Shown: in pieces, positions 6,239-36,527 of the stretch
Layout of the letters: each line of letters begins with the position of its first letter
Numbering within the stretch: the first letter of the stretch is position 1
NCBI GenBank assembly: GCA_031416075.1
Contig: JANOSY010000066.1
Coordinates: forward strand, 1 to 36,527
Direction: 5' to 3'
Length of the DNA: 36,527 bases
From: Candidatus Tenderia sp.
GTDB taxonomy: Bacteria > Pseudomonadota > Gammaproteobacteria > Tenderiales > Tenderiaceae
Position numbers and translations under genes: made by a program
Notes under the pieces: model-generated
Database searches by the model: none
The model's input: only the letters and a program-made list of their open reading frames with translations
Told to the model about the DNA's origin: nothing

Positions 6239-6288
6239 ATAAACCTTTACACACTACTTTTTAGATCTCATCAATTTAATGCAACCGA

Positions 6289-7314: not shown

Positions 7315-7350
7315 TAACAGCCCCACGAGTGTCAGAACGACATCTCATGT

Positions 7351-7671: not shown

Positions 7672-7708
7672 AGATCACCTTCCTTTTAAGCGCATAAACA
7701 AATCAGCT

Positions 7709-8752
7709 TCAAGATGCCATAGCCTGCACCAGATTGTGATAAAGCGGAATCCCAACAACAACATTAAATGGAAAGGTAATACCCAGCGACAGCGTCAAAT
7801 AGAATGAGGGGTTAGCCTCAGGAACCGCCAACCGCATCGCCGGAGGCACCGCGATATACGAAGCACTGGCACCCAACACCGCTACCAACGTAGCGCCACC
7901 AACGCTGAATCCAAGAATACTGTGGCCAACAAACGCGCCCACAACACCACCAATCAGTGGCATAACCACGCCAAAGATTGCCAACACCATACCCACCTGA
8001 CGAAGATCACCTAAGCGCCGCGCGGCCACCATCCCCATCTCAAACAGGAACAGGCAGAGAACCCCCATAAATATCTCTTCGACAAAAGGGGTAAGTTTAG
8101 CCATGCCTGACGGCACGGAGATCGCCCCTATAATCATGGAGCCAATCAATATTACCACACTGCCATTAGTGAAGGCATCACGCAACAAGGCCCCAAAAGT
8201 ATTGTTGCCATGTTTCACATCACTGTAATCATCATCGTCATCATCACTGCCATCAACAACTGCCGCCGACAATTTGTCACCCTTTGCAGCAATGGTCTGT
8301 CTCGCCTTAGCCGCCAGTAACAGACCCACAATAATTGCCGGAGACTCCATCACCGCAAGCATAATCAGCGGGTAGGTCTCGTGAGGAACACCACTGCTAT
8401 CAAGGTAGGCAATAGCGGTTAAAAAAGTACCCGCACTCACAGAACCGTAATGGGCAGAAATTGCAGCAGCATCCAGCGGGCTCACCTTGCGTGTTGCCAG
8501 CAATATCAAATAGCCAATAATAGGCAAACTAAATCCGAGAATTAAAGCCCACACAATAGCGTTAATAGCCGTCATCATATCGGCCGAGGCCAATGCGTGA
8601 CCACCATGGAGGCCAATCGCCATCAAGAGGTAGATGGAGAGAACCTTGGCCAAATCGGGAGGAAAACGAAGATCTGACTTAATCAGCCTAGCAATAACAC
8701 CAAGCGCGAAAAACAGCACTGCAGGCAACAACAGATTACTCAGGCTTGACAT
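7709..8752 (-). CDS. sbtA: Sodium-dependent bicarbonate transporter, SbtA family
   Basis: IKSDL, HYGSVSAGTF, MESPAI, SASYIAVP, SLGITFPFN. About 10 TM segments. Confidence 0.93.
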   Translation of the reverse strand: MSSLSNLLLPAVLFFALGVIARLIKSDLRFPPDLAKVLSIYLLMAIGLHGGHALASADMMTAINAIVWALILGFSLPIIGYLILLATRKVSPLDAAAISAHYGSVSAGTFLTAIAYLDSSGVPHETYPLIMLAVMESPAIIVGLLLAAKARQTIAAKGDKLSAAVVDGSDDDDDDYSDVKHGNNTFGALLRDAFTNGSVVILIGSMIIGAISVPSGMAKLTPFVEEIFMGVLCLFLFEMGMVAARRLGDLRQVGMVLAIFGVVMPLIGGVVGAFVGHSILGFSVGGATLVAVLGASASYIAVPPAMRLAVPEANPSFYLTLSLGITFPFNVVVGIPLYHNLVQAMAS

Positions 8753-8824
8753 ATTAATCCTCCGCGAACTTATTGGCCACTGGTCATAAAGTACCTACAG
8801 TATTTCAACCTGTAGTCGCTGATG

Positions 8825-8867
8825 CCAATCGATAGTTTGAATGCCTTACATTGATGACAATCAACGT
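8825..8867 (-). promoter_or_regulatory. Putative CbbR operator overlapping the -35 of an internal sbtA promoter
   Basis: 29/43 gapless identity with 16654-16696 upstream of cbbL. Minus strand reads TTGGCA-N18-AATACT. Confidence 0.65.
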
Positions 8868-8894
8868 GTCACCAATCGTAATACTACGATCAGC

Positions 8895-9050
8895 TCAGTC
8901 GGGCCAAACCCGGCGGGAAGGAAATCTAACAGTTGTCTCTTCTTTAGTCGTTTTGCTCTGCGGTGCAACCACAGTACTTTTGCTCTTGGCATCAGCGCTT
9001 GGCTTAGACGCTGTATTTGCAGTACTGCTTTCGTTTTTATTAGTGCTCAT
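8895..9050 (-). CDS. mcdB: McdB-like carboxysome positioning/adaptor protein, 51 aa (absent from the ORF track)
   Basis: Manual translation: MSTNKNESSTANTASKPSADAKSKSTVVAPQSKTTKEETTVRFPSRRVWPD*. AAGGA RBS, low-complexity body, C-terminal RVWPD motif. Confidence 0.8.
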   Translation of the reverse strand: MSTNKNESSTANTASKPSADAKSKSTVVAPQSKTTKEETTVRFPSRRVWPD

Positions 9051-9092
9051 CTCGCTTTCCTTCTTTATCACTCATCAATTCAAATTGGTTAG

Positions 9093-9350
9093 TTAAATCG
9101 CAACAGGCACCAGAGCATCAAGTTGACGGGCATACTCAAACAACTCCTCACTCACTTCGTCAGGCTGATCCGGCGATGTCAACGTAATAGAGACATGGGT
9201 ACGCCCAAAACTCATATCCGGATAGTAACCCCGCTGTTCAGACAGCTCGGCCGCTTTGTCAAGAAAGTCCCGTGTCTTCTCGTAGTCAGTAAACTCGAAA
9301 CGACATTCAAGACGCGCCGGACGTTTACGCTCTACCCACTTATCGCTCAT
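9093..9350 (-). CDS. Pterin-4a-carbinolamine dehydratase-like Rubisco assembly factor (acRAF/Raf2 type)
   Basis: W.ERKRPARLECRFEFTDYEKTRDFLD, YPDMSFGRTHVSITL. Lies within the cso locus. Confidence 0.88.
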   Translation of the reverse strand: MSDKWVERKRPARLECRFEFTDYEKTRDFLDKAAELSEQRGYYPDMSFGRTHVSITLTSPDQPDEVSEELFEYARQLDALVPVAI

Positions 9351-9366
9351 GGCTGATGTTCCCCGA

Positions 9367-9819
9367 TTAAATCAAAGCGGTCGGTTGTCCGGCCACAACG
9401 TCCTGCCACCAAGTACTAATATCAGCAGCATGTTGCTGCTCTTCACGTAGCAGCAGTTCAAAAAAAATCCTGTTCTCATGATCTTCCATGAGATGGCAAT
9501 GGTTTACCGCGTGGGTATAAAACCCAATGATCTCCGCTTCGAGATCGGCAACATGTTTCACCAGTTCCGCTAACGCCCCATCTAATTGTGATGGACGCAA
9601 ACAACTGGCGTTCGGCGCAACACCCAAGGCCAACATACGACCGATAATACGGTCAACGTGTTGCATCTCCTCTTGAGCTTCACGACGAAATTTCTCACCC
9701 GCCTTAGCCATACCACGTATTTCAAGTAATCTTGCCAGCGACAGATACTGTTGAACGGCCGACAGCTCAAAGCTCAAGGCGCGTCCTAAATATCCTAAAA
9801 TAGCCGGGTCGTATGTCAT
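9367..9819 (-). CDS. Carboxysome-associated bacterioferritin-like protein
   Basis: E18, Y25, E51, M52, H54, E94, E127 and H130 occur at the same positions as in E. coli Bfr. Confidence 0.85.
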   Translation of the reverse strand: MTYDPAILGYLGRALSFELSAVQQYLSLARLLEIRGMAKAGEKFRREAQEEMQHVDRIIGRMLALGVAPNASCLRPSQLDGALAELVKHVADLEAEIIGFYTHAVNHCHLMEDHENRIFFELLLREEQQHAADISTWWQDVVAGQPTALI

Positions 9820-9908
9820 CTGTATCTATTACTTCAACTTAAACAAATTAGAGCTGGATGTGGTGAGTCGCTCTCGCTGTTCTCATCACACCCAAGCCCT
9901 GCATTGTT

Positions 9909-10205
9909 TTATTCCATTGTATTGTTGAGGATTGGCTCAACTTCTTTGTGCGGACGAGCAATGATGTGTGCAGCCACGAGGCCATCACCAACACGCTCAC
10001 ATGCATCAGCACCGGCACGCACAGCAGCGTTAACCGCACCTGTCTCGCCACGTACCAGAATGGTGACATAACCGCCGCCAACAAATTCACGTCCAATCAG
10101 ACGCACTTCAGCCGCCTTGGTCATGGCGTCTGCTGCTTCAATAGCAGGAACCAGACCGCGGGTTTCAATCATGCCTAATGCAATACCGTAATGTTCAGTT
10201 GCCAT
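9909..10205 (-). CDS. csoS1: Carboxysome hexameric shell protein CsoS1
   Basis: GIALGMIETRGLVPAIEAADAMTKAAEV...AAHIIARPH. Confidence 0.97.
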   Translation of the reverse strand: MATEHYGIALGMIETRGLVPAIEAADAMTKAAEVRLIGREFVGGGYVTILVRGETGAVNAAVRAGADACERVGDGLVAAHIIARPHKEVEPILNNTME

Positions 10206-10236
10206 GGTTTTCTACTCCTCTGTGGATGGTTTAAAA

Positions 10237-10554
10237 TTACATTGTCCGGTTAGGACTAGTGCTAAGGCCCATGCTCAACACTGGCTCTACTTCTTTATGT
10301 GGACGGGCGATGATATGAGCAGCCACCAGGCCATCACCAACACGTTCACAAGCATCGGCACCAGCACGCACAGCAGCGTTAACCGCACCTGTCTCGCCAC
10401 GTACCAGAATGGTGACATAACCACCACCAACAAACTCACGTCCAATCAGACGCACTTCGGCTGCTTTAGTCATGGCGTCTGCTGCTTCAATGGCAGGAAC
10501 CAGACCGCGTGTTTCAATCATGCCCAGTGCAATACCGTAGTTGTGTTCGCTCAT
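10237..10554 (-). CDS. csoS1: Carboxysome hexameric shell protein CsoS1 with short C-terminal extension
   Basis: Core identical to 9909-10205, with tail SMGLSTSPNRTM. Confidence 0.97.
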   Translation of the reverse strand: MSEHNYGIALGMIETRGLVPAIEAADAMTKAAEVRLIGREFVGGGYVTILVRGETGAVNAAVRAGADACERVGDGLVAAHIIARPHKEVEPVLSMGLSTSPNRTM

Positions 10555-10628
10555 TTCTCTATCTCCGTCTTGATGTAAATCATTGCTCGTTAATTAAAAA
10601 CTTCCGCACCAAAATTTTCTGTCCAGTC

Positions 10629-10901
10629 TCAAACAACCTGCTGTGTCTGTCCTGCTTCTTCATCCCAATAGTCGATAATCCCACCAATGGCCAAGTCCGT
10701 TAAGACCGCAAAATCACCACATGCAAATCGCGCACCCGAGCCACTTACTACAAAAACCCAGTTACCTGGCCGACAGCCACAGGTATCAACTGCCACCTGT
10801 CTTTTGCCATTTACATCACGCAGTACCCGCAGACTGGTTTGATAAAGCTCAGCATGGCGTAGTGTGCACACCAGTGAACCTTCCACCTGCAAAATATCCA
10901 T
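10629..10901 (-). CDS. csoS4B: Carboxysome pentamer CsoS4B
   Basis: MDILQVEGSLVCT..VAVD.CGCRPGNWVF..SGSGAR..TDLAIGGIIDYW. Confidence 0.95.
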   Translation of the reverse strand: MDILQVEGSLVCTLRHAELYQTSLRVLRDVNGKRQVAVDTCGCRPGNWVFVVSGSGARFACGDFAVLTDLAIGGIIDYWDEEAGQTQQVV

Positions 10902-11152
10902 CAGGTCGATGCCTCATCCCAATAATCGATAATTCCAACGATAGTGAGATCACTTGGATACTCTTTGCTGCCTGCCGCTTCACGCGCTGCAGAACTGCCA
11001 ACACAAATTACCCAGTCACCCGGCGAGCAGCCAACAGAGTCAACCGCGACCAAACGAACCTTGCCATCCAAAACAACCTGTAGATGTTTGTGTTCCATGC
11101 TGGGGACACGATTAGTTGCCACCAACGGCTTTTCAACCTTACAAATTTTCAT
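10901..11152 (-). CDS. csoS4A: Carboxysome pentamer CsoS4A
   Basis: MKICKVEKPLVATNR..GDWVICVGSSAAREAAG..YPSDLTIVGIIDYW. Confidence 0.95.
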   Translation of the reverse strand: MKICKVEKPLVATNRVPSMEHKHLQVVLDGKVRLVAVDSVGCSPGDWVICVGSSAAREAAGSKEYPSDLTIVGIIDYWDEAST

Positions 11153-12672
11153 CAGTGGGCCTCCTGTTGCTGTAGATCCAAAGAGCTACCGACCACTTCA
11201 GCCATACCGTCATTTTGACAGTCACGCACCATTAACAACGTATGCAACAAACCACGATCGGCAAAATCACGAAAGCGGTTACGAAGAGCGTTATCCAGCT
11301 GATGGCAACGCGCCTCAGCCCTGTCTCGTGCGCCGGGCACTTGCCCGTGGTAATCATTACGAATCACCACCGGGATAGGCAGCCCGCGTCTGGCGTTCAG
11401 GCCGGTAAATATTTTGATACCAACATCCATATCCTTGGCACCCTCTTCTACTGTCTGCAAATAAGCAAAGTAGGTGAGGTTGCGTAGCTGAACTTCCTCA
11501 AAACCAATGCCCATACCGATAAAGCGCTCTTGATGACCGATATCACTGTAACAACCACCGTGGTATTGACGTACATAATCAATCTGCGACAGATTTCCAC
11601 ACAGCAGGCGCGCTGATAAACGCATCATTCCGGCAGTTGGTTGTGAAACACCACACGCCAAACTCATATCCTCAAGATAACGCTTTACTGCTGCCTCAGC
11701 ATCGAGCCCACTACTGTTACGTGTGGCGTTAAAGAGATCTATCGCATCCACATAACGATCCACATCCATTTCACCATTGGCATCCGGCAGGTGTAGCCGA
11801 ATCACATCGTTGTCTGTATCCATGCCAATCAGCAGCAAGTCAATCGAAGCACCACAACAAAAGCCGTTCTCAACACTCTGGCGAAACGCCTGTAACTTTG
11901 CTAACGCAGCCGCAGCCGCTTTCTGGGTATCACTGCCGTGTGCCGCGCACCCTTCACTCTCTGGCTTGGATGAACTGTGGTGATACACAGCAACCTTTAA
12001 GTAACGGGTCGGAACAGCCGCTTGATTAGGGCTACCTTCACGATGGCGCAACATCTCGGTTTCGATCCATTTCTGCAGACTATCTTCCACATCAAACATG
12101 GCACCGGCATACGACTTGCGCCGTACAGCTTTGTAAGGCAGTCGCAAAACATAACGGATCACATGGGCTAGACGGCCATCCGCACAAGGAGAGACATCCA
12201 ACGTATGAAACCCGCACTGCTCCAGAAATCTCTGAAACTCAAAATCATCGGCATCGGCCAACGGCCTGGTATCAAAAAACTCGTCCGACATTTGACGGAA
12301 GGTCTCAAATACACACCAAGCATATAGGCGGCCAATATCCAGCGGTTTTATCCAGCTATCTGCCAACAACGACTCAGGCAACTCCAATCCCAGTTCACTT
12401 TTGACTAGCGCCTGAGCACGACCAACAAAATCCGCCTCATGCTGTGCCGCTGACAGCATACGTAACGTCGGCTCAATCTCCGCAAATGCCTGTTTAACCT
12501 TCTGTTCATAATGAAACAACCGGCTATTTTCATCTTTACGGGTAAACGGATGTAACTGACTGTTCGACGACCAGCCATGGGCGGCAGCTGCACGCCCTTG
12601 GGGCAGTGCGCCACGCTGCGGAGGCTGATACCCCTGCGGTGCACGTCTGCTTTTTGATCTGGTGTTGAACAT
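11152..12672 (-). CDS. csoSCA: Carboxysomal carbonic anhydrase CsoSCA (CsoS3)
   Basis: PCADGRL, HHSSS..GCAAHGS Zn ligands, DTDND, FEEVQLRNL. Confidence 0.96.
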   Translation of the reverse strand: MFNTRSKSRRAPQGYQPPQRGALPQGRAAAAHGWSSNSQLHPFTRKDENSRLFHYEQKVKQAFAEIEPTLRMLSAAQHEADFVGRAQALVKSELGLELPESLLADSWIKPLDIGRLYAWCVFETFRQMSDEFFDTRPLADADDFEFQRFLEQCGFHTLDVSPCADGRLAHVIRYVLRLPYKAVRRKSYAGAMFDVEDSLQKWIETEMLRHREGSPNQAAVPTRYLKVAVYHHSSSKPESEGCAAHGSDTQKAAAAALAKLQAFRQSVENGFCCGASIDLLLIGMDTDNDVIRLHLPDANGEMDVDRYVDAIDLFNATRNSSGLDAEAAVKRYLEDMSLACGVSQPTAGMMRLSARLLCGNLSQIDYVRQYHGGCYSDIGHQERFIGMGIGFEEVQLRNLTYFAYLQTVEEGAKDMDVGIKIFTGLNARRGLPIPVVIRNDYHGQVPGARDRAEARCHQLDNALRNRFRDFADRGLLHTLLMVRDCQNDGMAEVVGSSLDLQQQEAH

Positions 12673-12793
12673 GGTTTTTAATCCATTCCCAAAAATTCAT
12701 TAAACGTCTATTCACTCAAAATCGGGTCAACGAGGCCATAAATGACCTCATCAACCAAACCCACTGCATATACATCTTTTGGATGTAGAACTA

Positions 12794-14719
12794 CTAACCG
12801 CGAGCACCACCGGAAAGTGTAATCGGGGCACCTTTATCAGAGGTTCCACTACCACCACCACCGGTCACATTAATATCGCTACGATCAACTTCTTCGTTAC
12901 GCTTTGGCGCTGCATTCAACATGGCACTCACTGGACCACGTCGAGTCGGATTACGTTTGATAGCCGAAGTACCCTCGGTACCGGTCACACGGTCACCACG
13001 ATTCCAGTCGTTGCCCGTAATTTTCATACTGAGTTCCATCCCTTCACCAGTAACACGTTTTTCCTTTACGTTATCCATTTTGGCTACTGCAGGAGCAACT
13101 CTAGCTACTGCAGAGGCAACAACTGACTCTCTTGCATTTGCCCGTGCCCTGCCTTCGCTTGAACGAAACTGCTCAGTACCCGTGATTTTGCCTTCACCTA
13201 ACGAGAAGGTACCGCTCACACGACCCTGCTCATAACGCACACCTGTAACACCCTCTTTCACCGCTGTTTTCTGGCTGGCATGAACAGGTAGCTGGTTAGG
13301 CTGTATCAGACTAAACGCACCCCAAGGTGCATCCGCCATCGGCTTTGGAAAATCAGGCTCACCCACTTGTGCTGGCACAGCACCACACACCTGCTGGTGA
13401 TGAGTAACACCCACATACGCAGTACCACTCACATCACGACAGGCACCCTTAGTGGCTCCGGTCAATCCAGAATACCCAGGCTGCATACCGGTGATATCAC
13501 GACCAGCAACGCCGGTACGACGCTGATTCCGCACTTCAGAAAGAGTTACATCATCTTGAGCACAAAAGTCGCGGAACTGCTCTGACCCAGCATAAGGCGT
13601 ACCAGTCACAGCACTGCATGTACCCGCCTCACCACCACTTACCTGATGAGAACGTGCCGGTTTAGAACCGGAGATGATCTGACCACGTGTAGTTTGCGAG
13701 AAACTCACCTTGGCAACACCCGGTTCTGGTTTGCTTTTGCAGAAATCGTCGTAGTGCTCGCGCCCTACATACTCCACACCTGTTACCGTGCGGCAGCTGC
13801 CACGTTCGTTGCCGGTCACTTTTTCACTCAGCCCAACCTTGCCACTGGCTGTAATCACACCACCACTGAGGTTTTCGCTGGACTCAACCTTACGTGGTAC
13901 AAAAGGCACCTCTTTCTGGCAAAACTCTGCAAACACATCACTCGAAAAGTAATCTGTACCGGTCACTGCGCGACAGAGTCCCGTCTCATCACCCGTAGTA
14001 CGTTCACTGTGTGAAACACGCGTTCCACTTACGCCGTTGTTCTGACGCTCCGGACGACGACGCCCCGCAGTTGCCGCACGTCCAGCTGGCTGTGTGGTAC
14101 CGCTGCCATTACCGCCACTGCTGCTACGCTGAGTACGCACTGTACGAGCAAGATCACGACCCGATATGTCAGGGTTTTGATGCCTGACCATCTGCGCTGA
14201 ACTGACACCTTTGCGATAAGCATCGGCACCTGTTTTACCATGTGCTGCCAACGCCTCACGACGCAGCTTGGAGTTAAGACGGCCAGCACTGCTAGCAACT
14301 ACAGCCTTGACATCATTACGACGTGGACTGTTGGTTGCTTTAGGCACTGCCAACATTGGCGCAGTTTCCCGTGCTGTCTTAGCATCACCACCGCCGCAGT
14401 CTTTCTCTACAGCACGGCTCATACGTTTGGCGTTAGCAATACGATCAGTGACCACGCCAGCCTTACCCTGCTCTGACATTGCCTGACGACGGGCACGTGA
14501 AGCTTCACGTCCGCTGTTCTTGGCAACCACAACAGAACGGGGAGATGCTTGTACAGCTGGCTTCACGGGTGAAGCAACAGGTGTCTGCACAGTCGCTTGA
14601 ACGGGAGCCTTGGAAACCACACTGGCTCCAGTTTTGGCTGACAGTGCCGCCTTGCCGTTAATTTGAGCATTACGGCGTGCCCTGGCGACATTACGTCCTG
14701 ACAGATCTTGAATAGCCAT
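12794..14719 (-). CDS. csoS2: Carboxysome scaffold CsoS2
   Basis: Four N-repeats (R..RR...GK-like), four Cys/VTG M-repeats, and a C-region ending ITLSGGARG. Confidence 0.96.
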   Translation of the reverse strand: MAIQDLSGRNVARARRNAQINGKAALSAKTGASVVSKAPVQATVQTPVASPVKPAVQASPRSVVVAKNSGREASRARRQAMSEQGKAGVVTDRIANAKRMSRAVEKDCGGGDAKTARETAPMLAVPKATNSPRRNDVKAVVASSAGRLNSKLRREALAAHGKTGADAYRKGVSSAQMVRHQNPDISGRDLARTVRTQRSSSGGNGSGTTQPAGRAATAGRRRPERQNNGVSGTRVSHSERTTGDETGLCRAVTGTDYFSSDVFAEFCQKEVPFVPRKVESSENLSGGVITASGKVGLSEKVTGNERGSCRTVTGVEYVGREHYDDFCKSKPEPGVAKVSFSQTTRGQIISGSKPARSHQVSGGEAGTCSAVTGTPYAGSEQFRDFCAQDDVTLSEVRNQRRTGVAGRDITGMQPGYSGLTGATKGACRDVSGTAYVGVTHHQQVCGAVPAQVGEPDFPKPMADAPWGAFSLIQPNQLPVHASQKTAVKEGVTGVRYEQGRVSGTFSLGEGKITGTEQFRSSEGRARANARESVVASAVARVAPAVAKMDNVKEKRVTGEGMELSMKITGNDWNRGDRVTGTEGTSAIKRNPTRRGPVSAMLNAAPKRNEEVDRSDINVTGGGGSGTSDKGAPITLSGGARG

Positions 14720-14752
14720 AACTGTTATCCCATTTTAAACTGAGAAACCAGA

Positions 14753-14783
14753 ATTGACCGTGGCGTACAACGCCACGGTCAAT
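14753..14783 (-). terminator. Perfect 14-bp hairpin between cbbS and csoS2 (leaky terminator or mRNA stabiliser)
   Basis: ATTGACCGTGGCGT-ACA-ACGCCACGGTCAAT followed by a weak U-tract. Confidence 0.6.
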
Positions 14784-14787
14784 CCGC

Positions 14788-15138
14788 CTACCACGTTTTG
14801 CCGCGATAAACGACAAAGCAGACACCCTGACTCTGGGTGTAGTTGTCGTAACCAAGCAGACGTACATGGTGATCAGGATATGCGCGATGACACGCATCCA
14901 GCTCAGCCACTACGTTGCCCAGCTCTTTCTCACCGAAAAAAGGCAGCTTCCACATAGTCCAGTAATGGTTAGTGGATTGGGCAGGATGTTCGTGCTCAAT
15001 CGCAGGTGTTAAACCCTGGCTCAGCATGTAGCTGATCTGGTCGTAGATCTCTTGCTGGGTCAGCGGTGGCAGAAAGGAGAAGGTCTCCAAAGTCTGCGTG
15101 GTGCGGTAATCACCCATAGTGCTGATATTTGCTTTCAT
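14788..15138 (-). CDS. cbbS: Rubisco small subunit, Form IA carboxysomal
   Basis: [29 protein letters not shown]. Confidence 0.98.
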
Positions 15139-15172
15139 TGTTTGCTCCTCTTAATTGGTGACGTTAAGGACT

Positions 15173-16585
15173 TTAGGCGACGTCCAGCTTGTCCACAGTT
15201 TCGAATTCGAACTTGATCTCTTTCCAAGTTTCCATCGCGATGGCCAGTTCTGGGCTGTTACGAGCAGCGCCTTCCAGGATGTCCTTAGCTTCACGCTCAA
15301 GCTCACGACCTTCGTTACGGGCCTTAACACACGCTTCCAACGCCACACGGTTGGCCGCAGCACCTGCAGCGTTACCCCATGGGTGACCCTGTGTACCACC
15401 ACCAAACTGAAGGATTGAGTCATCACCAAAGATGTTAACCAGCGCAGGCATGTGCCAAACGTGGATACCACCGGAGGCAACTGCAAATACACCAGGCATA
15501 GAACCCCAATCCTGGTCAAAGAAGATACCGCGACGACGATCTTCAGGAACAAATGATTCACGCAGCAGATCAACATAACCCAGTGTTGACGCACGGTCAC
15601 CTTCCAGCTTACCAACAACAGTACCGGTATGCAGATGGTCACCACCTGACAGACGCAGACACTTGGCCAGCACGCGGAAGTGGATACCGTGTTTAGGGTG
15701 ACGATCGATTACAGCGTGCATTGCACGATGGATATGCAGCAGTATGCCGTTTTTACGGCACCACTTGGCCAGACCACCGTTAGCGGTGAAACCGCCTGTC
15801 AGGAAGTCATGCATGATCACTGGCTGACCCAGCTCTTTAGCGAATTCAGCACGCTCATACATATCTTCAGGGGTGTTGGCGGTTACGTTCAGGTAATGGC
15901 CTTTCACTTCGCCTGTTTCAGCCTTAGCCTTTTCAACAGCCATGGCAACAAACTCAAAACGGTTCTGCCAGCGCATAAATGGCTGTGAGTTTACGTTTTC
16001 ATCATCTTTGGTCAGATCCAGACCGCCACGCAGACATTCGTATACAGCGCGACCGTAGTTTTTAGCAGACAGACCAAGCTTTGGCTTGATGGTTGCGCCC
16101 AACAGTGGACGGCCATACTTGTTCAGCTTGTCACGCTCAACCTGAATACCACTAGGTGGTCCCATGCAGGTCTTAACAAAGGCAATCGGGAAGCGAATAT
16201 CTTCCAAACGCAGGTGTTTAACAGCCTTAAAGCCGAATACGTTACCTACCAATGAGGTCAGTACGTTAACGATTGAACCCTCTTCAAAGAGGTCAAGTGG
16301 GTAAGCAATAAAGGCATAGAAGCTCTCTTTGTCGCCTGGAACATCTTCAATACGGTAGGCGCGTCCCTTGTAAAACTCCATATCGGTCAACAGTTCTGAC
16401 CAGACGGTACTCCAAGTACCTGTAGATGATTCAGCGGCAACAGCTGCTGCGGCCTCATCCTTAGGTACGCCGTCCTGGGGCGTTACTTTGAAACAGGCCA
16501 GCAAATCTGTATCGAGCGGAACATAGTCCGGGGTCCAATATAGATCGCGGTACTCTTTTACACCGGCATCGTATGTCTTTGCCAT
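15173..16585 (-). CDS. cbbL: Rubisco large subunit, Form IA carboxysomal
   Basis: [56 protein letters not shown]. Confidence 0.99.
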
Positions 16586-26530: not shown

Positions 26531-26555
26531 AAAAAACCCCGCATCAGGCGGGGTT
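26531..26555 (-). terminator. Intrinsic terminator
   Basis: AACCCCGC/GCGGGGTT stem running into a T6 tract on the minus strand. Confidence 0.8.
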
Positions 26556-26580
26556 CAAAAAACAGAACTGCTACCAAAAT

Positions 26581-26703
26581 TTAGAACATGAAGCGAGCCA
26601 TTACACTGCCAACATCATTTTTAGCAGGGTAAGTGGCACTACCGGCAGCACTTTTCAACTCCTTAACGTAAGCGGCAGTGAATCGCAGATTTTGGGCTGG
26701 CGC
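26581..26703 (-). pseudogene. Orphan 3' end of an outer-membrane beta-barrel gene
   Basis: Manual translation: APAQNLRFTAAYVKELKSAAGSATYPAKNDVGSVMARFMF*. Two amphipathic strands, terminal Phe, and a terminator directly after. Confidence 0.6.
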
Positions 26704-27319
26704 TGCCGATAAAATCACCCGGATTATCTTCACCAATGCGCGCGAGCAGCTGCTCCACAACAGCGCTCGGCGCGGTCACGCTACTGGAACCTACCGCCAG
26801 CAGGAACGGCCCCGCGCCCCGCGCCAGAAAAAACAGCTCATGTGGTAGCCAACCGAGCCGCAACTGCGGTGGCTGATCACCGAGGCCAGCCGGGTCGGAC
26901 GTCACCTCCAGACGCCAGTAACGGTCGCTGTTGATGCTCATGCTGGGCTCATTGTGCAACTCAGTGCCCTGCTCCTGGAGTCGATAGAACAGACCGCTAT
27001 AACGCCGCATCCACGGCGCACTCTTTGTTGCACTCGACAACAACACACCTTCCAACAGGCTGTTGTTCTCTGCCAGCAGCAGATCGATACGACCGACTGG
27101 CAGCTGGGCCTGAGTATCGAATTCGTATACGGGTTTAGTCTCTTGGCTGCGCTGACCGGCGATCTCCAGCCATTGATCAACGGGGCGCGTAGTGCTGCGT
27201 GGCAGGTACACCTGCACGGTGGTAACCAGCGGATAACCGAAGGCAAACTCTTCCGCTGTCAGTGCAAAGAGTGGCAACGGCACAACGCAGAGCAACCACA
27301 TAACTACAAAACGTTTCAT
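26663..27319 (-). pseudogene. DUF3999-like gene, internally deleted and 3'-truncated
   Basis: Signal peptide plus FAFGYPL, then YRL..RYWRL..LGW.P..L.FLARG.GPF.LA.G. Follows DUF2339. Only 218 aa with no C-terminal TM helix. Confidence 0.6.
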
Positions 27320-27327
27320 GCCGTGGC

Positions 27328-30090
27328 CTACTCTTGAGTACGTGGTGGCAGTGGCGAGAAGTAACCGATCACCAGCATCAAGCCGCCTACCACCAGGAAG
27401 GAGACAATACGCGCCATGGTGCCGATGCCGGACAGATCAACAATGAAGAGTTTGATGACGGCCGCCGCCAGCAGCGCAGCACCGGCAAACCAGATCGGAC
27501 GTTGTGCCTGACGGGTGGCAACCACCATCACCAGCAGTGCCGTGAGTGTCCAGAGGATCGACGCCGACGCCTGGAACAGCACCGAATCACCCAGTGCCGC
27601 CACCGTAAAATCAACACCGCCCCAAAAGTGCACAGCACGCGCCACGGCGGCATTGAGCCAGGCAAATCCACCTAACGCCAACGCGCCGTAAAGTAACTCA
27701 GCAGGTGGCCGGTATTTTGTCGGCACATCGCTATCGCGTAACCACAACAACCAACGCGCCAGCAGCAACAGCACAAAAATTTGCGCCAGATCGAGTGGAT
27801 TGATCAGCGCAACATAGGGTAATGGATCGGCAGCACCATGCCTCAGGCAAGCACCCAACAGCCACACAAACAGATAGAGTGCGATCGGTGCGAGACCCAG
27901 GCCAAGATAGGCGTGGGCATGTTGACGCACCGGCCAGCGCAGTGCCAACCCCCACTTCATCAACACCGCCATCACCATGCCCGGCAACACCGCCCAGGCA
28001 ATCGTGCGCCAGGTCTCCGCCCCCGGCAGCATCTGGCGAATGGCCCAGTCGAGTTCCCAACTACCAAGCACTACCAACAACCACAACCCCAATGCATGCC
28101 AGAGCATGATCAACCGTGGCGGCCAGTGCGTTTCGAGTCGCCACAACAGGTAATAGCTCGCCGCCAGCGTCAGCACCCAGGCCAGCCAGCCCCAACCGGC
28201 AAAGGCGTGTGGGTGGAGGTATGACTCCAGCTCATAGACCAACAGCAGACACAGCAACGGCAGCAGCCCGAGTGGTGGATAACGCAGCTCCGGCCACTCA
28301 ATCCGCTGGGCCAGCCATGCCATTGCAACCGCACTGCCGGCAAGCAACAGAATCATGGCATTGGTAATATCGCTACCGTTGAGGTGCGCGTCGATTTCAC
28401 GACTGCTCGTGCCCAGCCACCAGAGCAGCCCCCACCCCAGCAAAATGGGCGACAGCAGCTGCGCCTTGCCACTGAGCAAGCTGCGATGACGCTGCAGATA
28501 CCACGCCGAAAACATACCCGCCACACTGATGATGAGGCCACCCAAAAAGATGCCATTCCAGATCGGCATCAGACCAGCGGAATCATACAGCGCCAACAGA
28601 AACGCACTGCCAGCGCCAAGCTGCAACAACACGCCAAAGGCACGCGCCAGGCGGCGCTGCTGACGCACACCGATCCATATCAGTGCCGCCCCCTCCATCG
28701 CCCAGGCCGCTGCCGTCCAACGACCATCCAGCGCCAGCGGTATGGCCAGACTGCCAAACACCACCCCGAGCGCCAGGAATGCCTCGGTGATCAGCCGCAA
28801 ACCCGGCGCGGCACGGCGCCACAGTTGCGACGCCAGCACCAGGTAGAACAACGCCAACGCCAGTGCGCTGTAGGCCAGACCAAATTCAAAATCGCTTACC
28901 AAACCGGTTTGCAGACCAAAGCCCACCAGCGGCACACCAAATACCAGAGCGCCATCAACATAGCCTTTAAGCTGCGGCGGCTGACGCGAGGCAAACAACA
29001 CCGCAATGGCGACATAGAGCAGGAAAAAAAACAGCAGAAACGGTTCGGTGCTGGCAAACAGCTCGGGGCGATAAAACTGGTATCCCCAGCTTGCGCCGAT
29101 CACAAAGGTGAAGAGAAAACCAAGCACGTTGAGTTCACGCCAGGCACGGAACCAGGCGATGCCGAGAATACCAACATTAAGCAATGCAAAATAGGAGAAG
29201 AGCATGACGTGTGATCCACCGCCCGTTGAGGTGAGCACCGGCGCGAGGAAACCACCGGCGCTGCCAAACACGGCCAGGACGCGGGCATCCTGCAACACCG
29301 CCAGCACTCCAGAGAGCGTCACCAGCGCAACCATGATGATCAAAGCAAAACCAGGCGGTAGTAACTGGTAGAGCTTGGCCGCGGCAAAAACGGTGAGATA
29401 CAACACACCCATCGCACCACCCTGTAAAACCAAACCGTAATTACCGGAGCGCGCCCGCAATCGCCACCCCAATACCAGCACCGCCAACGCCGCCAACACA
29501 ACAGCGCTGAGGCGCAACTCGATGGGCAGCAGATTCTGTTCAGCCGCGTACTTAAGCAGGAAGGAGACGCCAAAAAAGAGCACCACAATACCAATCCGGA
29601 CAACGGGATTGCCGCGCGTAAAAAAACCGATTACGTGATCAAACAGATTTGGTGTGCGTGCTGCTTCAGGTTTATGGGTGGCGCTGGCGGGCGTACTACG
29701 CCACGGATTTTGCGACGTGGATTCGGGTTTCATAGCCACGTCCTGACTGACCACCTTAGGCAGCACCTCAATTGGCAGCGGCTGTTGCACAGGCGTAGCT
29801 GGTTGGCCCTCGGCTATGGCGCTCTCATCGGCAACATCGGGCGTCCCGGCTGCTGCGGCAAGCTGGGCGGCTTGATGGCGCAACCCCTCTTCGAGCACCG
29901 ACAAACGCTTTTTATAACCACTGGCCATCACCTCCTGGCGCCGTTCGACCTGAACAATGCGCGCCGCTAACGATTGCACCGTGCCAATCACATAACCCAA
30001 CGCCGCCCCCATGAGTGCAGGCCCCGGCCCCCACAACACCCCCGCGATGGCCGCGATGAATACGATCAGAACAACTGTCAGCAGCGACAT
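27328..30090 (-). CDS. DUF2339 polytopic membrane protein
   Basis: GNPVVRIGIVVLFFGVSFLLKYA, GFLAPVLTSTG, KLFIVDL...RIVSF...GYFSPLPP. Confidence 0.88.
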   Translation of the reverse strand: MSLLTVVLIVFIAAIAGVLWGPGPALMGAALGYVIGTVQSLAARIVQVERRQEVMASGYKKRLSVLEEGLRHQAAQLAAAAGTPDVADESAIAEGQPATPVQQPLPIEVLPKVVSQDVAMKPESTSQNPWRSTPASATHKPEAARTPNLFDHVIGFFTRGNPVVRIGIVVLFFGVSFLLKYAAEQNLLPIELRLSAVVLAALAVLVLGWRLRARSGNYGLVLQGGAMGVLYLTVFAAAKLYQLLPPGFALIIMVALVTLSGVLAVLQDARVLAVFGSAGGFLAPVLTSTGGGSHVMLFSYFALLNVGILGIAWFRAWRELNVLGFLFTFVIGASWGYQFYRPELFASTEPFLLFFFLLYVAIAVLFASRQPPQLKGYVDGALVFGVPLVGFGLQTGLVSDFEFGLAYSALALALFYLVLASQLWRRAAPGLRLITEAFLALGVVFGSLAIPLALDGRWTAAAWAMEGAALIWIGVRQQRRLARAFGVLLQLGAGSAFLLALYDSAGLMPIWNGIFLGGLIISVAGMFSAWYLQRHRSLLSGKAQLLSPILLGWGLLWWLGTSSREIDAHLNGSDITNAMILLLAGSAVAMAWLAQRIEWPELRYPPLGLLPLLCLLLVYELESYLHPHAFAGWGWLAWVLTLAASYYLLWRLETHWPPRLIMLWHALGLWLLVVLGSWELDWAIRQMLPGAETWRTIAWAVLPGMVMAVLMKWGLALRWPVRQHAHAYLGLGLAPIALYLFVWLLGACLRHGAADPLPYVALINPLDLAQIFVLLLLARWLLWLRDSDVPTKYRPPAELLYGALALGGFAWLNAAVARAVHFWGGVDFTVAALGDSVLFQASASILWTLTALLVMVVATRQAQRPIWFAGAALLAAAVIKLFIVDLSGIGTMARIVSFLVVGGLMLVIGYFSPLPPRTQE

Positions 30091-30371: not shown

Positions 30372-33300
30372 GTGAAACAGCTAAAAAGCAGCGACATTCG
30401 CCTCGACATCAGCCAGCAAAGCTACGCTCGTGGCAAGGCCTATTACGATGAGCAACGAGTGATCGCACTAACCATCGACAATGAAACGGATGATCTGGTC
30501 GAGCTAAGTGCAACGGTCCGCGGCAGTGGCAACGCCCGTTACCAGCAGCAGATCGAAATAATCTGGGACGCTGATGACGTCACCATCAATGGCGATTGTG
30601 ACTGCCCGGTGGGTTATAACTGCAAACATGTGGCGGCCGCCTGCCTGAAATATCTGGCACAGTTTCACCTCTCAACGCCGGGCGCCACACTAAAAAAGGA
30701 GAGCACCGCCTGCCTCACCTGGCTCGATGAGTTCACCGCACCAGCCACTGCACAACCGCAACAAAACGCCGTTACCAGAGAGCAGCTCTTCTACATACTT
30801 AAACCGACCGGCCAAGTGGGTAAACTCCAGGCCGTTTTTTATACAGCGCGTCTATTGAAAAATGGCCGACTGAGCAAGCCACGCACCATCCACCTGCACA
30901 ACATCAATGATAGCTATCATCCCGCCCCCTATATTCAGCCGCTTGATCGGGATATAGGCAAACTGCTGCGCGCCAATAACGACAGCTGGCACGTTGTCTT
31001 GTTACATGGCGAACTTGGTTTTCTTGCGTTGAGCAAGATGGTGCAGAGTGGCCGTTGCCACTGGCTTGATCTGGAGTCAGTTGCGCTCTACCCCGGCGAA
31101 GAGCGTGAACTGGCATTGCAGTGGCAAGAGGATGCCAAGGGTAATAACAAACTCAATGTCGAGATCATGCCCGAAGGTCAGCTGCTACTCACCACACCGG
31201 CACTCTATCTTTCACACAAAACCCATAGCGTCGGCCCGGTGGTCAACGCCCCCTATTCCCAGACCCAACTGGAGAAGCTGCTGAACGCCCCGCCGGTTCC
31301 GGCGCAGCTGGTCACCGAATTCAGCCAAAAATTGGTGCGCAAGATTGCACCCACACTGCTACCACCACCACAGCAGGTAGAGAGCGAAGAGATCAACGGC
31401 GAGCACGCCATCCCCTGCCTGCAACTCTCGGCACGCGAACGCGAAGGTCATCTCTACCATATCCTGCGATTGCGCTACCGCTACGCCACGCACGAGATCA
31501 TGGCCTCGCCACAAGAGGAAACGGCGCTGCTTGAGATCAACGGCAAGATCATCCGCATTGAACGCGATATCAAGGGCGAGACCGCCGCCTTTGATGAGAT
31601 CGAGGCATTAGGCTTTAAACCACTGCTCGACCAGAACCAACACGACATCATCTTTCTCAGCATGAGCAACACAAACCCCATAGAGGGCGTAGTGCGCTGG
31701 CAATATTTTCTTGCCAAGGTGATCCCCGCGCTCCAGCAACGTGGCTGGCAGGTGGAGTTTGACAGCAGCTTCCAGATGCATTTTCACGAGGCCCAGCAGT
31801 GGCAGGCCGAGATTGAAGAGCATGGCAACGACTGGTTTGGCCTGCGCTTTGATGTCGAGGTGGAAGGGCAGTCCATCGCACTCCTGCCACTGGTGGCGCA
31901 GGCGCTGGAGCACTACCCACCGGATCAACTGCCCGACATCCTCACACTCCATCTCGGCGGCGCGCAGTATCTGAACATCGCCCGCGAACAGATCGAGCCG
32001 ATCATAACCACCCTTTACGAACTTTATGACCGCGACACACTGCAAGCCGATGGTTCGCTGCGGCTGTCACGTTACGATGCGGCACGCCTGACCGAACTGG
32101 AACAGACCAGCGACGTGCAGTGGCGCGGCGGTGAAGCACTACGCAAACTCGGACAACAGCTCAAAGATTTTCAGGGGATCAAAAAAATTGCGCCGCCCAC
32201 TGGGTTAAACGCCACCCTGCGCCACTACCAGCAACAGGGGCTCAACTGGCTGCAATTCCTGCGTGAATATGGCTTTGGTGCCATCCTCGCCGATGACATG
32301 GGGCTAGGTAAAACGGTACAGACCCTCGCCCACCTGCTGTTGGAGAAAGAGCAGGGGCGCCTCACCAAACCGTGCCTGATCATCGCCCCCACCAGCCTCA
32401 TGAGCAACTGGCGGCGCGAGGCACAACAGTTTGCACCGGCGCTCACAGTACTGGTGCTGCAAGGACCGGAGCGCCACCAGCTCTTCGACCAGATTACAGA
32501 ACACGACATCGTGCTGAGTACCTATCCCCTGCTGCCGCGAGATGAAGAACAGCTGTTGTCCCACCACTACCACGCCCTGATTCTGGACGAGGCGCAGATC
32601 ATCAAAAACCCCAAGGCCAAGGCGTCACAGATCGTGCGGCTGATCAAGGCCGATCAACGCCTCTGCCTTACCGGCACCCCGATGGAGAACCACCTGGGTG
32701 AACTCTGGGCACTGTTCGATTTCCTGATGCCCGGTTTTCTTGGCACAACACGCCAGTTCAACACGCTGTTCCGCACCCCCATCGAAGATCACGGCGATGG
32801 AGAACGGCGTCAGCGGCTGGCAAAACGGATCGCCCCCTTCATGCTGCGCCGCACCAAAGATGAGGTGGTCAAAGAGCTGCCAGAGAAGACCGAGATCATC
32901 CGCACCGTCACACTCGGTAAAAAACAGGCCGCACTCTACGAAAGCATCCGCCTCTCGATGGAATCCAAGGTGCAACAAGCCATCGCCAGCAAAGGGCTGG
33001 CACGCAGCCACATCACCATCCTCGATGCGCTACTAAAATTACGCCAAGCCTGTTGTGATCCACGCCTGCTACCACTGGCGCAAGCACAAAAGGTCAACGA
33101 ATCCGCCAAACTCGAACTGCTGATGGAGATGGTGCCAGAGATGGTTGAAGAGGGACGCCGCATCCTGCTCTTCTCCCAGTTCACAAAAATGCTCGGCCTG
33201 ATCGAATCCGAACTCAGCAAACACAACATCCCCTACACCAAACTCACCGGCCAGACGCGCAATCGTGATGAAGCGATTGAACGATTCAAAAGTGGTGAAG

Positions 33301-33614
33301 TACAGGTCTTTCTCATCAGCCTCAAGGCCGGAGGCGTCGGCCTCAACCTCACCGAAGCCGACACCGTCATCCACTACGACCCGTGGTGGAACCCGGCAGT
33401 GGAGCGCCAAGCCACCGACCGTGCCCACCGCATCGGCCAACAGAAGGCAGTGTTTGTTTATAAACTGGTCACAGAAAACAGCGTAGAAGAGAAAATCGTC
33501 GCCATGCAGGCAAGAAAGCAGGCACTGGCGCAGGGGGTGTACAACAAAACCGAACAGGGTGAAGAGCTGACTCTCACTGCCACCGATATGGAGCAGCTGT
33601 TTGCGCCGTTGTAG
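30372..33614 (+). CDS. SWIM zinc-finger SNF2-family helicase
   Basis: CDCPVGYNCKH SWIM, LADDMGLGKT, ILDEAQ, LTGTPMEN, LLFSQF, LKAGGVGLNL, WWNPAVE.QATDRAHRIGQ. Confidence 0.95.
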   Translation: MKQLKSSDIRLDISQQSYARGKAYYDEQRVIALTIDNETDDLVELSATVRGSGNARYQQQIEIIWDADDVTINGDCDCPVGYNCKHVAAACLKYLAQFHLSTPGATLKKESTACLTWLDEFTAPATAQPQQNAVTREQLFYILKPTGQVGKLQAVFYTARLLKNGRLSKPRTIHLHNINDSYHPAPYIQPLDRDIGKLLRANNDSWHVVLLHGELGFLALSKMVQSGRCHWLDLESVALYPGEERELALQWQEDAKGNNKLNVEIMPEGQLLLTTPALYLSHKTHSVGPVVNAPYSQTQLEKLLNAPPVPAQLVTEFSQKLVRKIAPTLLPPPQQVESEEINGEHAIPCLQLSAREREGHLYHILRLRYRYATHEIMASPQEETALLEINGKIIRIERDIKGETAAFDEIEALGFKPLLDQNQHDIIFLSMSNTNPIEGVVRWQYFLAKVIPALQQRGWQVEFDSSFQMHFHEAQQWQAEIEEHGNDWFGLRFDVEVEGQSIALLPLVAQALEHYPPDQLPDILTLHLGGAQYLNIAREQIEPIITTLYELYDRDTLQADGSLRLSRYDAARLTELEQTSDVQWRGGEALRKLGQQLKDFQGIKKIAPPTGLNATLRHYQQQGLNWLQFLREYGFGAILADDMGLGKTVQTLAHLLLEKEQGRLTKPCLIIAPTSLMSNWRREAQQFAPALTVLVLQGPERHQLFDQITEHDIVLSTYPLLPRDEEQLLSHHYHALILDEAQIIKNPKAKASQIVRLIKADQRLCLTGTPMENHLGELWALFDFLMPGFLGTTRQFNTLFRTPIEDHGDGERRQRLAKRIAPFMLRRTKDEVVKELPEKTEIIRTVTLGKKQAALYESIRLSMESKVQQAIASKGLARSHITILDALLKLRQACCDPRLLPLAQAQKVNESAKLELLMEMVPEMVEEGRRILLFSQFTKMLGLIESELSKHNIPYTKLTGQTRNRDEAIERFKSGEVQVFLISLKAGGVGLNLTEADTVIHYDPWWNPAVERQATDRAHRIGQQKAVFVYKLVTENSVEEKIVAMQARKQALAQGVYNKTEQGEELTLTATDMEQLFAPL

Positions 33615-34081
33615 CGAAATCAGCACGTAAAGTGGGCAGCAACACAACATCCAACTCCATTCGGCGCAATGGGTTGCCCACGCGGTGCGTCACCAGCAAC
33701 CACAGCGGTTTGATTTTCCGCGAAGACGCTCCAAAAACAATGCGAAGCTGACCCCTTTAGTTGCTTGCGCTGAAGTTTTGAAAGTAAACCATACCATTAT
33801 TCCTTATTCTTTAAGAACCACGAACAGGAAGGCATTTTACCGAGAATACGCCCCTCATGAACCCGAGCGCAAGCCGCCTTTAATGCTCTAAACATCCTGC
33901 ACCAAACTCAACGCCATCACTGTGCCAAAACCGTGAGACAATGATTTTGACATGGGATATTTACTGCTCTGACCTTGATGTTGGCTGCTGTCCTGTCGAG
34001 GATCGCCATGCTGTTTATCTTGATGGCTAGCGCAACCGTCTTTTCCATCACTGCGCATTATCGATTTTGTAATTTTGTGCG

Positions 34082-34189
34082 CGCTAACGCTTAGGCTGAG
34101 GGGCATTATGGAGTGGTGGATATTTTGTGCTATTCAGAGCACAAAATATATGCTGCTGAATAATGTCCCTCTCAAGCCAATTGTTAGCT
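34082..34189 (-). mobile_element. Integron attC site (about 108 bp)
   Basis: Minus strand: AGCTAAC (R'') AATT GGCTTGAGAGGGACATTAT ... ATAATGCCCCTCAGCC TAAGC GTTAGCG (R'). Extra-helical bases on one arm and a central 12-bp hairpin. Overlaps the DUF3800 stop codon. Confidence 0.85.
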
Positions 34190-35205
34190 CATTTTTTTAC
34201 CATGGCCCTACAAGAAGCAATCATAATTTTAACAAGCTCCTTACTTTCCCCAACAGGATATGACTTGGAGTTCAAGGAAACTAATCCTATAGGAGCGCTA
34301 TTAGATTTTTCTTGCACCATAAGACCACCAAGTAGTCTCGCTGCGGTTTCATTATCTGCGAAACCTCTTTTTAAGACTCTTCTGACTCCGGATGCTAATA
34401 AATCTGCTATCTGAATACCATCCACAGAGCGAGAATCTAGAAATTTAATATCTTTTCTAACAATTTTCTGGATATCGTACCCTTCTTCATCTTTCAAATG
34501 AGGAAATTTCTCCACTAAATATTCAGGTATTTCACCTTTTCCATAAATGTATTCACGCATAGGCCTATAATCGCACCAGTTTAATGCTGGCATAGGCTCT
34601 TCTAGAGAAAAGGTCTGTAATAGGGCAGGGCTAAGTTTTTCAAAAGCATCTTCGTAATTCAGCTTTTTCGCCGGTTCTTTCTGATCAACGCGCCACTTAA
34701 AGCTTTTCAGAGTATTTGGATACCTCTGAACGAAGTAGCAAATTCCTCTATTAACGACTTCTAGCATTAATATGATTTGACACACCATCTGGGTATAGAG
34801 CTGATTTGAAAGAGAATCTATTTGAGACGTAAGGTATCGAAGAGCCTCTTTACCGCCTTCATACAACATTTTATCGACACCACTTAATATTGATGATGCC
34901 AGCTTATTCTTATGGTTATCTATTAGCTCTTCTGTATTAAAGTGTGTATCTGTTGCTACACAGAACAAAACTCCTTTCTGCTTGTTAAGCTCATTCAAGA
35001 AATTAAAGTATTCATTTTCATCAATTTCATAAAGCTTAATTTCCTCCTGAACTGCGCAATTATTCCTCAGCTTAAGCTTTCTAAGTGCCTCCCTATATTT
35101 TCTCTTTTCGGACTCAGGAGTCACATATGAGGCGACAACACACCATGAATTAGTGGCTGCCCCTTTGGCAGTAAAACTCCCAGATTCATCAATAAATATT
35201 TCCAA
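34189..35205 (-). CDS. DUF3800-family protein (gene-cassette ORF)
   Basis: N-terminal IFIDESG and C-terminal DS....IQIADLLAS. AT-rich. TTG start at 35205 with AAGG RBS. Confidence 0.8.
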   Translation of the reverse strand: MEIFIDESGSFTAKGAATNSWCVVASYVTPESEKRKYREALRKLKLRNNCAVQEEIKLYEIDENEYFNFLNELNKQKGVLFCVATDTHFNTEELIDNHKNKLASSILSGVDKMLYEGGKEALRYLTSQIDSLSNQLYTQMVCQIILMLEVVNRGICYFVQRYPNTLKSFKWRVDQKEPAKKLNYEDAFEKLSPALLQTFSLEEPMPALNWCDYRPMREYIYGKGEIPEYLVEKFPHLKDEEGYDIQKIVRKDIKFLDSRSVDGIQIADLLASGVRRVLKRGFADNETAARLLGGLMVQEKSNSAPIGLVSLNSKSYPVGESKELVKIMIASCRAMVKK

Positions 35206-35220
35206 TTGAAAACACCTTAC

Positions 35221-35280
35221 TGAGCTAACATTAAATGGACCCCAAAGTGGGGTGATCAAATACCCAACTCTGGGGTATTT
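35221..35280 (-). other. Cassette 5' core site plus attI-like repeats
   Basis: GTTAGCTCA (35229-35221) is the exact reverse complement of TGAGCTAAC at the gene end. Two palindromic repeats, ACCCCAAAGTGGGGT and ACCCAACTCTGGGGT, lie 23 bp apart. Confidence 0.55.
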
Positions 35281-35416
35281 CCTACTTTAAAATTTATACT
35301 CGGTTGCCGTATGAATGACAAAACAAAAAACATGGCCACGCATAGGTTGTTGGTGTGAAGGCAGGTTATGTTTTTAATCTGGGTGTGTCTGCCTGTTGTG
35401 ATCTGAATGCAGGGCT

Positions 35417-35560
35417 ATAGGATGCGCTGAGGTACGAAGCGCATCGTGCCCAAAGCACTTCGCGGGGCAGGCTCTACCCAAAGCGCTTGCCCAAAGCACT
35501 GCGTGGGGCAGGCTCTTCGTGCAATACAACTGATGCGCCTCCTGCGTCGGCACATCCTAT
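35417..35560. repeat. REP-type inverted pair enclosing a 29-bp direct repeat
   Basis: ATAGGATGCGCTGA..GAAGCGCATC pairs with GATGCGCCTC..TCGGCACATCCTAT. TGCCCAAAGCACT..GGGGCAGGCTCT occurs at 35447 and 35488. Confidence 0.7.
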
Positions 35561-35769
35561 CTCATTACGCCGTTGATATTTACTACACGTGGGATTTGAT
35601 TCTGACTGGATTGTGTTTTTGATCTTCATGACATGCCCCCATGTATGTGGCTCACTATGACTAGTTGCGGTGTGGTGGTCAACATCAAAAAGAGGCTGGA
35701 TGACTCAAAGGATATTATAGAGTTCCTAAAAACATCTTTTGATCTCACATTTGATCCTGCCAGGGCCAC

Positions 35770-35969
35770 GCCACCGACCGCGCCCACCACATCGGCCAAG
35801 AGAAGGCAGTCTTTGTATATAAACTGGTGACCGGGAACAGCGTCGAAGAGAGGATCGTCGCCATGCAGGTAAGAAAATGGGCATTGGCGCAAGGGGTATA
35901 CAACAAGGCCGAACAGGGCGAAGCACTAACCCTCAACGCCCCCGACATGGAGCTGTTATTTGCATCGTT
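35770..35969 (+). pseudogene. Diverged duplicate of the SNF2 helicase 3' end
   Basis: Gapless 165/200 match to 33411-33610. Translates ATDRAHHIGQEKAVFVYKLVTGNSVEERIVAMQVRKWALAQGVYNKAEQGEALTLNAPDMELLFAS. Confidence 0.93.
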
Positions 35970-35982
35970 ACAACACGATGAG

Positions 35983-36527
35983 TGATCTGGCTAGACTACC
36001 CCGGACATACAGCCTCAAATAATGTTGAGGCATAACCGAGAGAGTGTTCCGATGAATGAACAGCAGAAACAAAAGCACTACCCCGCCGAATTCAGGGAGT
36101 CTGCTGTCAAGCTGGCAGTGGAGAGTGATCAACCGATCAGCAAGATTGCTGATGAGCTGGGGGTCAACAAGAACACACTGCCGCAAGTTCAAGGCGACGA
36201 CATACTCCAACCATAACAGGCCTGTCGTGCCTAATTTGCTGGCCCGCGAATTTGAGGTGGCCAAGCCGAACACCGTTTATGTTGCGACATCGCCTATATT
36301 GCGACCACAGAGGGGTGGCTCTATCTGGCGGTATGGATAGACCTCTACTCCCGCGCTGTCGTCGGTTGGGCCATGTCGGAACGGATCAATGCCCAGCTGG
36401 TCACGGATGCATTGACCATGTCGATCTGGAGGCTTGATGGTACACAGCGATCAAGGCAGCCAATATGCCTCAGAGCTGTATCAGGAGACCCTCAAGGCCA
36501 ATGGGGTTATTTGCAGCATGAGTCGCA
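35983..36527 (+). mobile_element. Degenerate IS3-family element with internal deletions and frameshifts, running off the window
   Basis: TG-initiated left end TGATCTGG..GGACA. orfA YPAEFRESAVKL..IADELGVNKNTL is joined directly to orf[51 protein letters not shown]. Confidence 0.9.

Follow-up and report, generated by a model that had tools for sequence, protein, structure and literature searches.

A decayed second tail of a SWIM-SNF2 helicase gene beside a variable cargo site in Candidatus Tenderia

How does a bacterial gene come to be followed by a second copy of its own 3′ end, with other DNA in between and no integrase beside it? The question is raised by a 36,527-nucleotide stretch of Candidatus Tenderia DNA (the window), which is the whole of contig C66 in a 3.5-Mb genome (G000) with carboxysome and RuBisCO genes. 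An ordinary alpha-carboxysome cluster occupies positions 5609-16585 (RuBisCO, CsoS2, CsoSCA, BMC proteins and a bicarbonate transporter). Further along, an intact SWIM-SNF2 helicase gene precedes the duplicated end. An initial annotation proposed that foreign DNA with a homologous tail had crossed over at helicase motif VI, replaced the C terminus and pushed the old tail downstream, so that the gene would act as a landing pad for cargo.

The second tail copy

The SWIM-SNF2 gene lies at 30372-33614 on the forward strand and encodes 1080 amino acids; it is intact and was identified by Pfam matches. Using blastn, we confirmed that 33411-33610 and 35770-35969, both on the forward strand, form a direct and gapless repeat at a spacing of 2359 bp, with 35 mismatches in 200 bp (82% identity, E 2e-53) and no perfect match longer than 16 bp. 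The mismatches number 20, 8 and 7 at codon positions 3, 2 and 1, and 18 codon differences are synonymous and 12 non-synonymous. Its left end lies at the Ala of QATDRAHRIGQ, inside motif VI as annotated. Copy 1, the functional one, runs from motif VI through the last codon, and its amino acid sequence is 100% identical in G000 and in the congeners G001 and G003. Copy 2 has no gene body, a changed stop codon (TAG to CAA) and an Arg to His exchange in motif VI at a position that does not vary in alignment A2; the initial annotation was accurate on each of these points. When the search was extended beyond the window to the whole G000 genome, copy 2 remained the sole second tail of this kind.

Copy 2 and its left flank occur together in single contigs of the metagenome runs X1, X2, X3 and X4 with 0 mismatches (these runs come from two studies, and X1 may be the source sample), and diverged variants of copy 2 are present in runs X5, X6 and X7. 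These contigs and variants rule out an assembly chimera as its origin. Contigs from 8 runs, a form of data that drops rare variants, contained no credible joint between the two tails. Joints from 33403 to 35770 in X7 and X9 were considered as excision products and rejected, and we read them as SNF2 genes of other organisms (sides of 23-27 bp, extra letters).

Private changes of the G000 tail copy are spread 5/5/5 over the codon positions (n=15), and those of its orthologue in G001, a copy of 150 bp, 4/3/7. Because of the even spread, copy 2 can be called dead and neutrally decaying, in line with its earlier description as a displaced tail. The two tail copies cluster in the tree (UFboot 85-87, aLRT 92) and both stand behind the same 240-bp block; these comparisons show a single junction with a common ancestor. 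They differ from each other at 31 of 144 positions, of the same order as the synonymous divergence of the gene. Both share 9 changes, unpolarised, 6 of which are at third positions (p 0.04), and several of which are conservative (Ser and Leu states also found in G002, G012 and G008). The synonymous lean of the repeat thus derives from the living gene and from the shared stem, not from a copy 2 that was functional until recently.

Cargo and flanks of the variable slot

Behind the stop codon, a non-coding stretch at 33615-33762 (forward strand) is common to G000 and G001. Its last 19 bp (33744-33762) form a motif that marks where the cargo of the two genomes diverges. Allowing up to 3 mismatches, the G000 genome contains 4 matches to this motif, which occurs also on C55, C64 and C65, in C64 upstream of an attI homologue, and is possibly the end of an element.

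The cassette itself is on the reverse strand. The only long open reading frame in the insert, at 34189-35205, encodes a DUF3800 protein of 338 amino acids from a likely TTG start, and the stop codon overlaps the R″ box (AGCTAAC) of an attC site at 34082-34189. This attC site also has an R′ box (GTTAGCG) and a long hairpin (z -6.0). The cassette is 1.1 kb long with 38% GC (53% in the genome), holds a single frame and runs from GTTAGCT to the exact complement AGCTAAC, followed by attC. Beyond the attC site lies either a truncated second cassette or plain flank (33763-34081, reverse strand), and a 44-amino-acid frame in it has no Pfam match. In G003, G008 and G015, a homologue of the 110 bp ahead of the cassette lies upstream of complete intI genes, which justifies the label attI-like for 35223-35330 (reverse strand), with a core GTTAGCT complementary to the R″ box of the cassette. 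Taken together, these att sites identify the insert as a genuine integron cassette at an attI homologue without integrase; the annotated attC cassette and attI-like site both stand. No intI adjoins the attI homologue as it would in a complete integron, and G000 has no match to TIGR02249 (intI) above the cut-off. A cluster of REP-like short repeats follows at 35416-35563, again as annotated; one repeat has 17 hits in the genome. An Rfam search gave a single match, which we judged to be chance.

G000 has 7 matches to this attI-like site, that of the window included and two of them partial, which gives 6-7 attI homologues. The others are at C34:1281-1382, C64:7392-7496, C12:5565-5670, C15:1479-1579, C17:124383-124440 and C17:143038-143088, and the five that we inspected each precede a different open reading frame. 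Solo attI-like sites are also found in G003, G004 and G008. The IntI trace in G000 consists of a 37-codon N-terminal fragment (C26:1202-1312).

Beyond the cargo, the slot is bounded by a non-coding block of about 240 bp (block X, 35516-35758, forward strand) that is present in G000, G001 and G003. Block X is 95% identical in G001 (over 35475-35758) and in G003 (over 35516-35701). Its conservation at 95% in three species stands beside adjacent dead DNA at 78%. Between G000 and G001, block X differs at 15 of 284 positions, compared with the 31 of 144 of the tail copies (p 8e-7), so that later exchange of block X or constraint on it must be assumed.

Block X ends in the remnant of the 3′ end of a glutaredoxin-like gene (35694-35744, forward strand), 41 of 51 positions of which are identical to a G001 gene that sits 1.3 kb downstream of the G001 tail copy. 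None of 1000 shuffles reached the score of this match, 6 of its 10 mismatches are at third positions, and the remnant is nearer to the G001 gene than to the gene that G000 itself has on another contig. The duplicated unit thus extends from SNF2 motif VI to the end of the glutaredoxin gene. Because the remnant abuts motif VI of copy 2, motif VI is a non-homologous joint and not a crossover. On the far side of copy 2, a broken transposase remnant (36022-36527, forward strand), which we take to be IS3-type from its HTH_Tnp_1 and rve domains, runs off the contig. Positions 36417-36527 overlap C84:20147-20257 of G000 exactly over 111 bp, which suggests that C84 continues the contig through the insertion sequence remnant.

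Four congeners were searched. The gene is present in G001 and G003, G002 has a body-less SNF2 tail and G004 no close match to the gene. The cargo after the SNF2 stop differs in 3/3 genomes of the genus with the gene (G000, G001 and G003), as the initial annotation anticipated: a DUF3800 cassette in G000, a different cassette-like gene of 273 amino acids in G001 and, directly after the stop in G003 (L031:3766-6372), a PtuA-like ATPase with its partner that match PDC-M01A/B and form a candidate defence pair. The suggestion that the cargo may serve defence therefore has a candidate in G003; for the DUF3800 protein of G000, PADLOC models of 0 families matched at E 0.01. Further alleles with unlike downstream sequence were seen in contigs of runs X3/X4, X5/X6 and X9. 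In G001, a REP doublet as well as block X precedes the 150-bp tail copy. No tail copy is present in G003, which does have cargo and block X, and the profile used is sensitive enough to detect the remnants in G001 and G002; the slot is therefore variable, yet it does not include the tail copy and does not need one. The G002 tail (L033:12693-12796) has an internal stop and lies beside a foreign-looking 556-amino-acid open reading frame; the gene on its other side resembles one for phosphoenolpyruvate carboxylase.

Exchange of the helicase gene between species

We compared fourfold-site differences of the SNF2 gene with those of the backbone, defined as the genes of this contig with cysS left out and with sbt and lysR lacking G003 data. 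Between G000 and G001, the backbone differs at 882/1751 sites (0.50) and SNF2 at 139/476 (0.29). Between G000 and G003, the order is reversed, with 198/1751 (0.11) for the backbone and 148/472 (0.31) for SNF2, and between G001 and G003 the values are 701/1448 (0.48) and 88/490 (0.18); p<1e-15 in all three comparisons. Set against those of the backbone, these distances show that the entire SNF2 gene, and not its tail alone, has crossed between congeneric species. Three genomes only (G000, G001 and G003) carry the close allele.

To the left of SNF2, the DUF3999 and DUF2339 genes (26663-30090, reverse strand) form the left part of the tract whose identity pattern is unlike the backbone. G001 has kept the extreme 3′ end of DUF3999 alone (L032:8247-8408, 89% identical to window positions 26542-26703), and DUF2339 is missing there. 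This DUF3999 remnant marks the left edge of the exchanged tract.

The tail and body of the G000 gene are equally distant from G001 and from G003 (Fisher p 0.84 and 1.0), which rules out a swap of the tail alone in G000. The proposed crossover at motif VI with replacement of only the C terminus thus finds no support in these distances or in the position of the glutaredoxin remnant. Tail exchange as such fares better elsewhere: G001 and G003 differ at 12/31 fourfold sites in the tail and 76/459 in the body (p 0.006), so crossovers near the SNF2 3′ end do occur.

Origin of the displaced tail

The layout of gene, cargo, glutaredoxin remnant and dead tail is shown by the sequence. The reading we favour, to which we give about an even chance, is that copy 2 is the scar of one old homology-anchored insertion. 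The incoming DNA, derived from a relative and spanning SNF2 through the downstream glutaredoxin gene, would have recombined homologously at the SNF2 body or upstream of it, and its other end would have been joined non-homologously to motif VI of the resident gene. The incoming copy would then have kept the helicase and lost the glutaredoxin gene, and the resident copy would have kept the glutaredoxin gene (as in G001) and lost the helicase body. Ordinary homologous recombination would have carried the tract through the genus, and the cargo between stop codon and block X would turn over by capture of integron cassettes and by replacement between conserved flanks, adding no new tail duplication. 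The incongruence of the whole gene with the backbone points to a homologous anchor without locating the crossover point itself, and the glutaredoxin remnant abutting motif VI points to a non-homologous joint. Homology-facilitated illegitimate recombination involves a short microhomology at the joint; at the predicted joint here it is 6 bp, which 16% of 5000 random controls equal, so that it lacks significance. Against this reading count the 51-bp length of the glutaredoxin match, the tail/body break between G001 and G003, the conservation of block X and the restriction of the close allele to three genomes.

The main rival keeps the event within one chromosome: the segment between motif VI and the glutaredoxin end would have been duplicated in tandem and the two copies would have decayed reciprocally, which yields a tail copy without foreign DNA. 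It predicts the same layout with the same remnant, fits the neutral private changes and the agreement between tail-copy and synonymous divergence, and accounts for the data nearly as well because the 9 shared changes cannot be polarised. We nevertheless consider it possible rather than probable: the shared changes lean synonymous with several conservative ones, and the locus has demonstrably been exchanged between species. The landing pad of the initial annotation, with C termini swapped repeatedly by foreign tails crossing over at motif VI, could draw on the differing cargo of the congeners, the unlike downstream alleles of the metagenomes, the G001-G003 break, the body-less tail in G002 and a separate 80-bp copy in a distant genome (L182). 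It is improbable given one junction of one origin for both copies, no stacked tail copies anywhere, no tail copy in G003, no tail/body break in G000 and the rarity of tail copies elsewhere. The data do not support recurrent tail swapping. An island or prophage driven by an integrase, which brought a replacement gene end to motif VI and has since lost that integrase, would resemble the locus outwardly, and the repeat does start in a conserved motif; we regard this as very improbable, since G000, G001 and G003 have no tyrosine recombinase within or next to the repeat region, all 6 matches to tyrosine recombinases in G000 are on other contigs (the annotated absence of an adjacent integrase holds), the junction abuts a host-gene remnant and the longest perfect match is short. 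Finally, a second full-length SNF2 gene could have lost its body by deletion and left copy 2 behind, as body loss in G002 and orphan tails in two other genomes illustrate. This we find hardly credible: no intact tandem full-length copy, the paralogue that the initial annotation had named as an alternative, exists in the 16 family genomes searched, and the glutaredoxin remnant would go unexplained.

Of 160 distant SNF2 loci, 7 had no parsable motif; the remaining 153 included 108 with a downstream stretch of 2.5 kb or longer. Seven of the 108 gave hits: one direct tail copy (L182), one inverted paralogue (L209) and five short hits of 22-32 bp, treated as chance. The L182 case (L182:8312-12130) is independent, with its 80-bp decayed tail directly behind an autotransporter gene of 1166 amino acids. 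In a survey of the class, 162 of 401 genomes matched, 45 of them, besides G000, with two or more matches; 44 of these were resolved (G055 was left out, and up to 15 candidates were scored per genome), and 0/44 had a short direct-repeat tail behind a full SNF2 gene, although the profile picks up the remnants in G001 and G002. Such tails, in 1/108 distant loci and 0/44 multi-match genomes, reject a general SNF2 landing pad. Two orphan decayed tails, at G125:C25:31638-31754 (inverted, 15 kb from the gene) and G385:C194:19708-19881 (adjoining a transposase-like frame), are other events; these were the orphan short frames examined, with G112:C74 and G399:C96 left out.

The anatomy has precedents. 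In E. coli K-12, icd/icdC flanks the cryptic prophage e14 (PMC13626634), and there too an intact gene is followed by inserted DNA and a C-terminal pseudogene copy in direct repeat, as the SNF2 3′ end is duplicated around its insert. Unlike icd/icdC, the SNF2 locus has no integrase or phage genes, no tyrosine recombinase on the window contig and no observed excision; its copies are only 82% identical and its insert consists of cassette and repeats over 2.2 kb. For the orphan 3′ ends of T6SS/Rhs loci, homology-facilitated illegitimate recombination is the proposed origin (Kirchberger et al. 2017, PMC5361080); these loci share with ours one homologous anchor, one non-homologous joint, an old 3′ end moved downstream and later spread by ordinary homologous recombination. 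Unlike those loci, SNF2 encodes a conserved helicase with an unchanged C terminus and has a single scar, not an array of successive ends. Cassettes without integrase (CALIN/SALIN) are also known (Loot et al., bioRxiv 10.1101/2022.09.11.507474); an attC cassette with no integrase nearby is the shared feature, and the cassette of the SNF2 locus differs in lying at a recognisable attI homologue and not at a bare GWT attG site. Unlike CALIN/SALIN, G000 has its 6 to 7 attI homologues and no complete intI, and unlike a strict SALIN (one attC, no other att site near), the cassette is preceded by an attI homologue. In searches limited to open papers, neither this locus nor a hotspot at SNF2 came up. 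The locus is thus a new case of a kind of event already described: most likely one scar with a displaced tail, in the manner of icd/icdC or of homology-facilitated recombination, at a variable site, where accessory genes are likely to turn over by routes other than tail duplication.

We also considered a bolder reading, which we hold to be doubtful, of SWIM-SNF2 as a recombinase-free shuttle. The whole gene would cross species together with defence genes and solo attI-cassette units, repeated 3′-end insertions (G000/G001, G002 and L182) would leave dead tails, and the scattered solo attI sites would be a separate route of cassette spread. If true, the gene would cross between species about 50% diverged at fourfold sites, and solo attI sites in a genome without intI would be a separate, little-described route by which cassettes spread.

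On the reading we favour, the locus is a readable natural fossil of foreign-DNA entry without integrase, in which the duplicated unit has two identifiable ends and the order of ages can be read from the sequence, with the scar first, then the spread across species and the turnover of cassettes last. It also cautions that a dead gene tail beside variable cargo is alone no proof of repeated tail swapping. The variable slot is a place to seek new defence genes in this genus.
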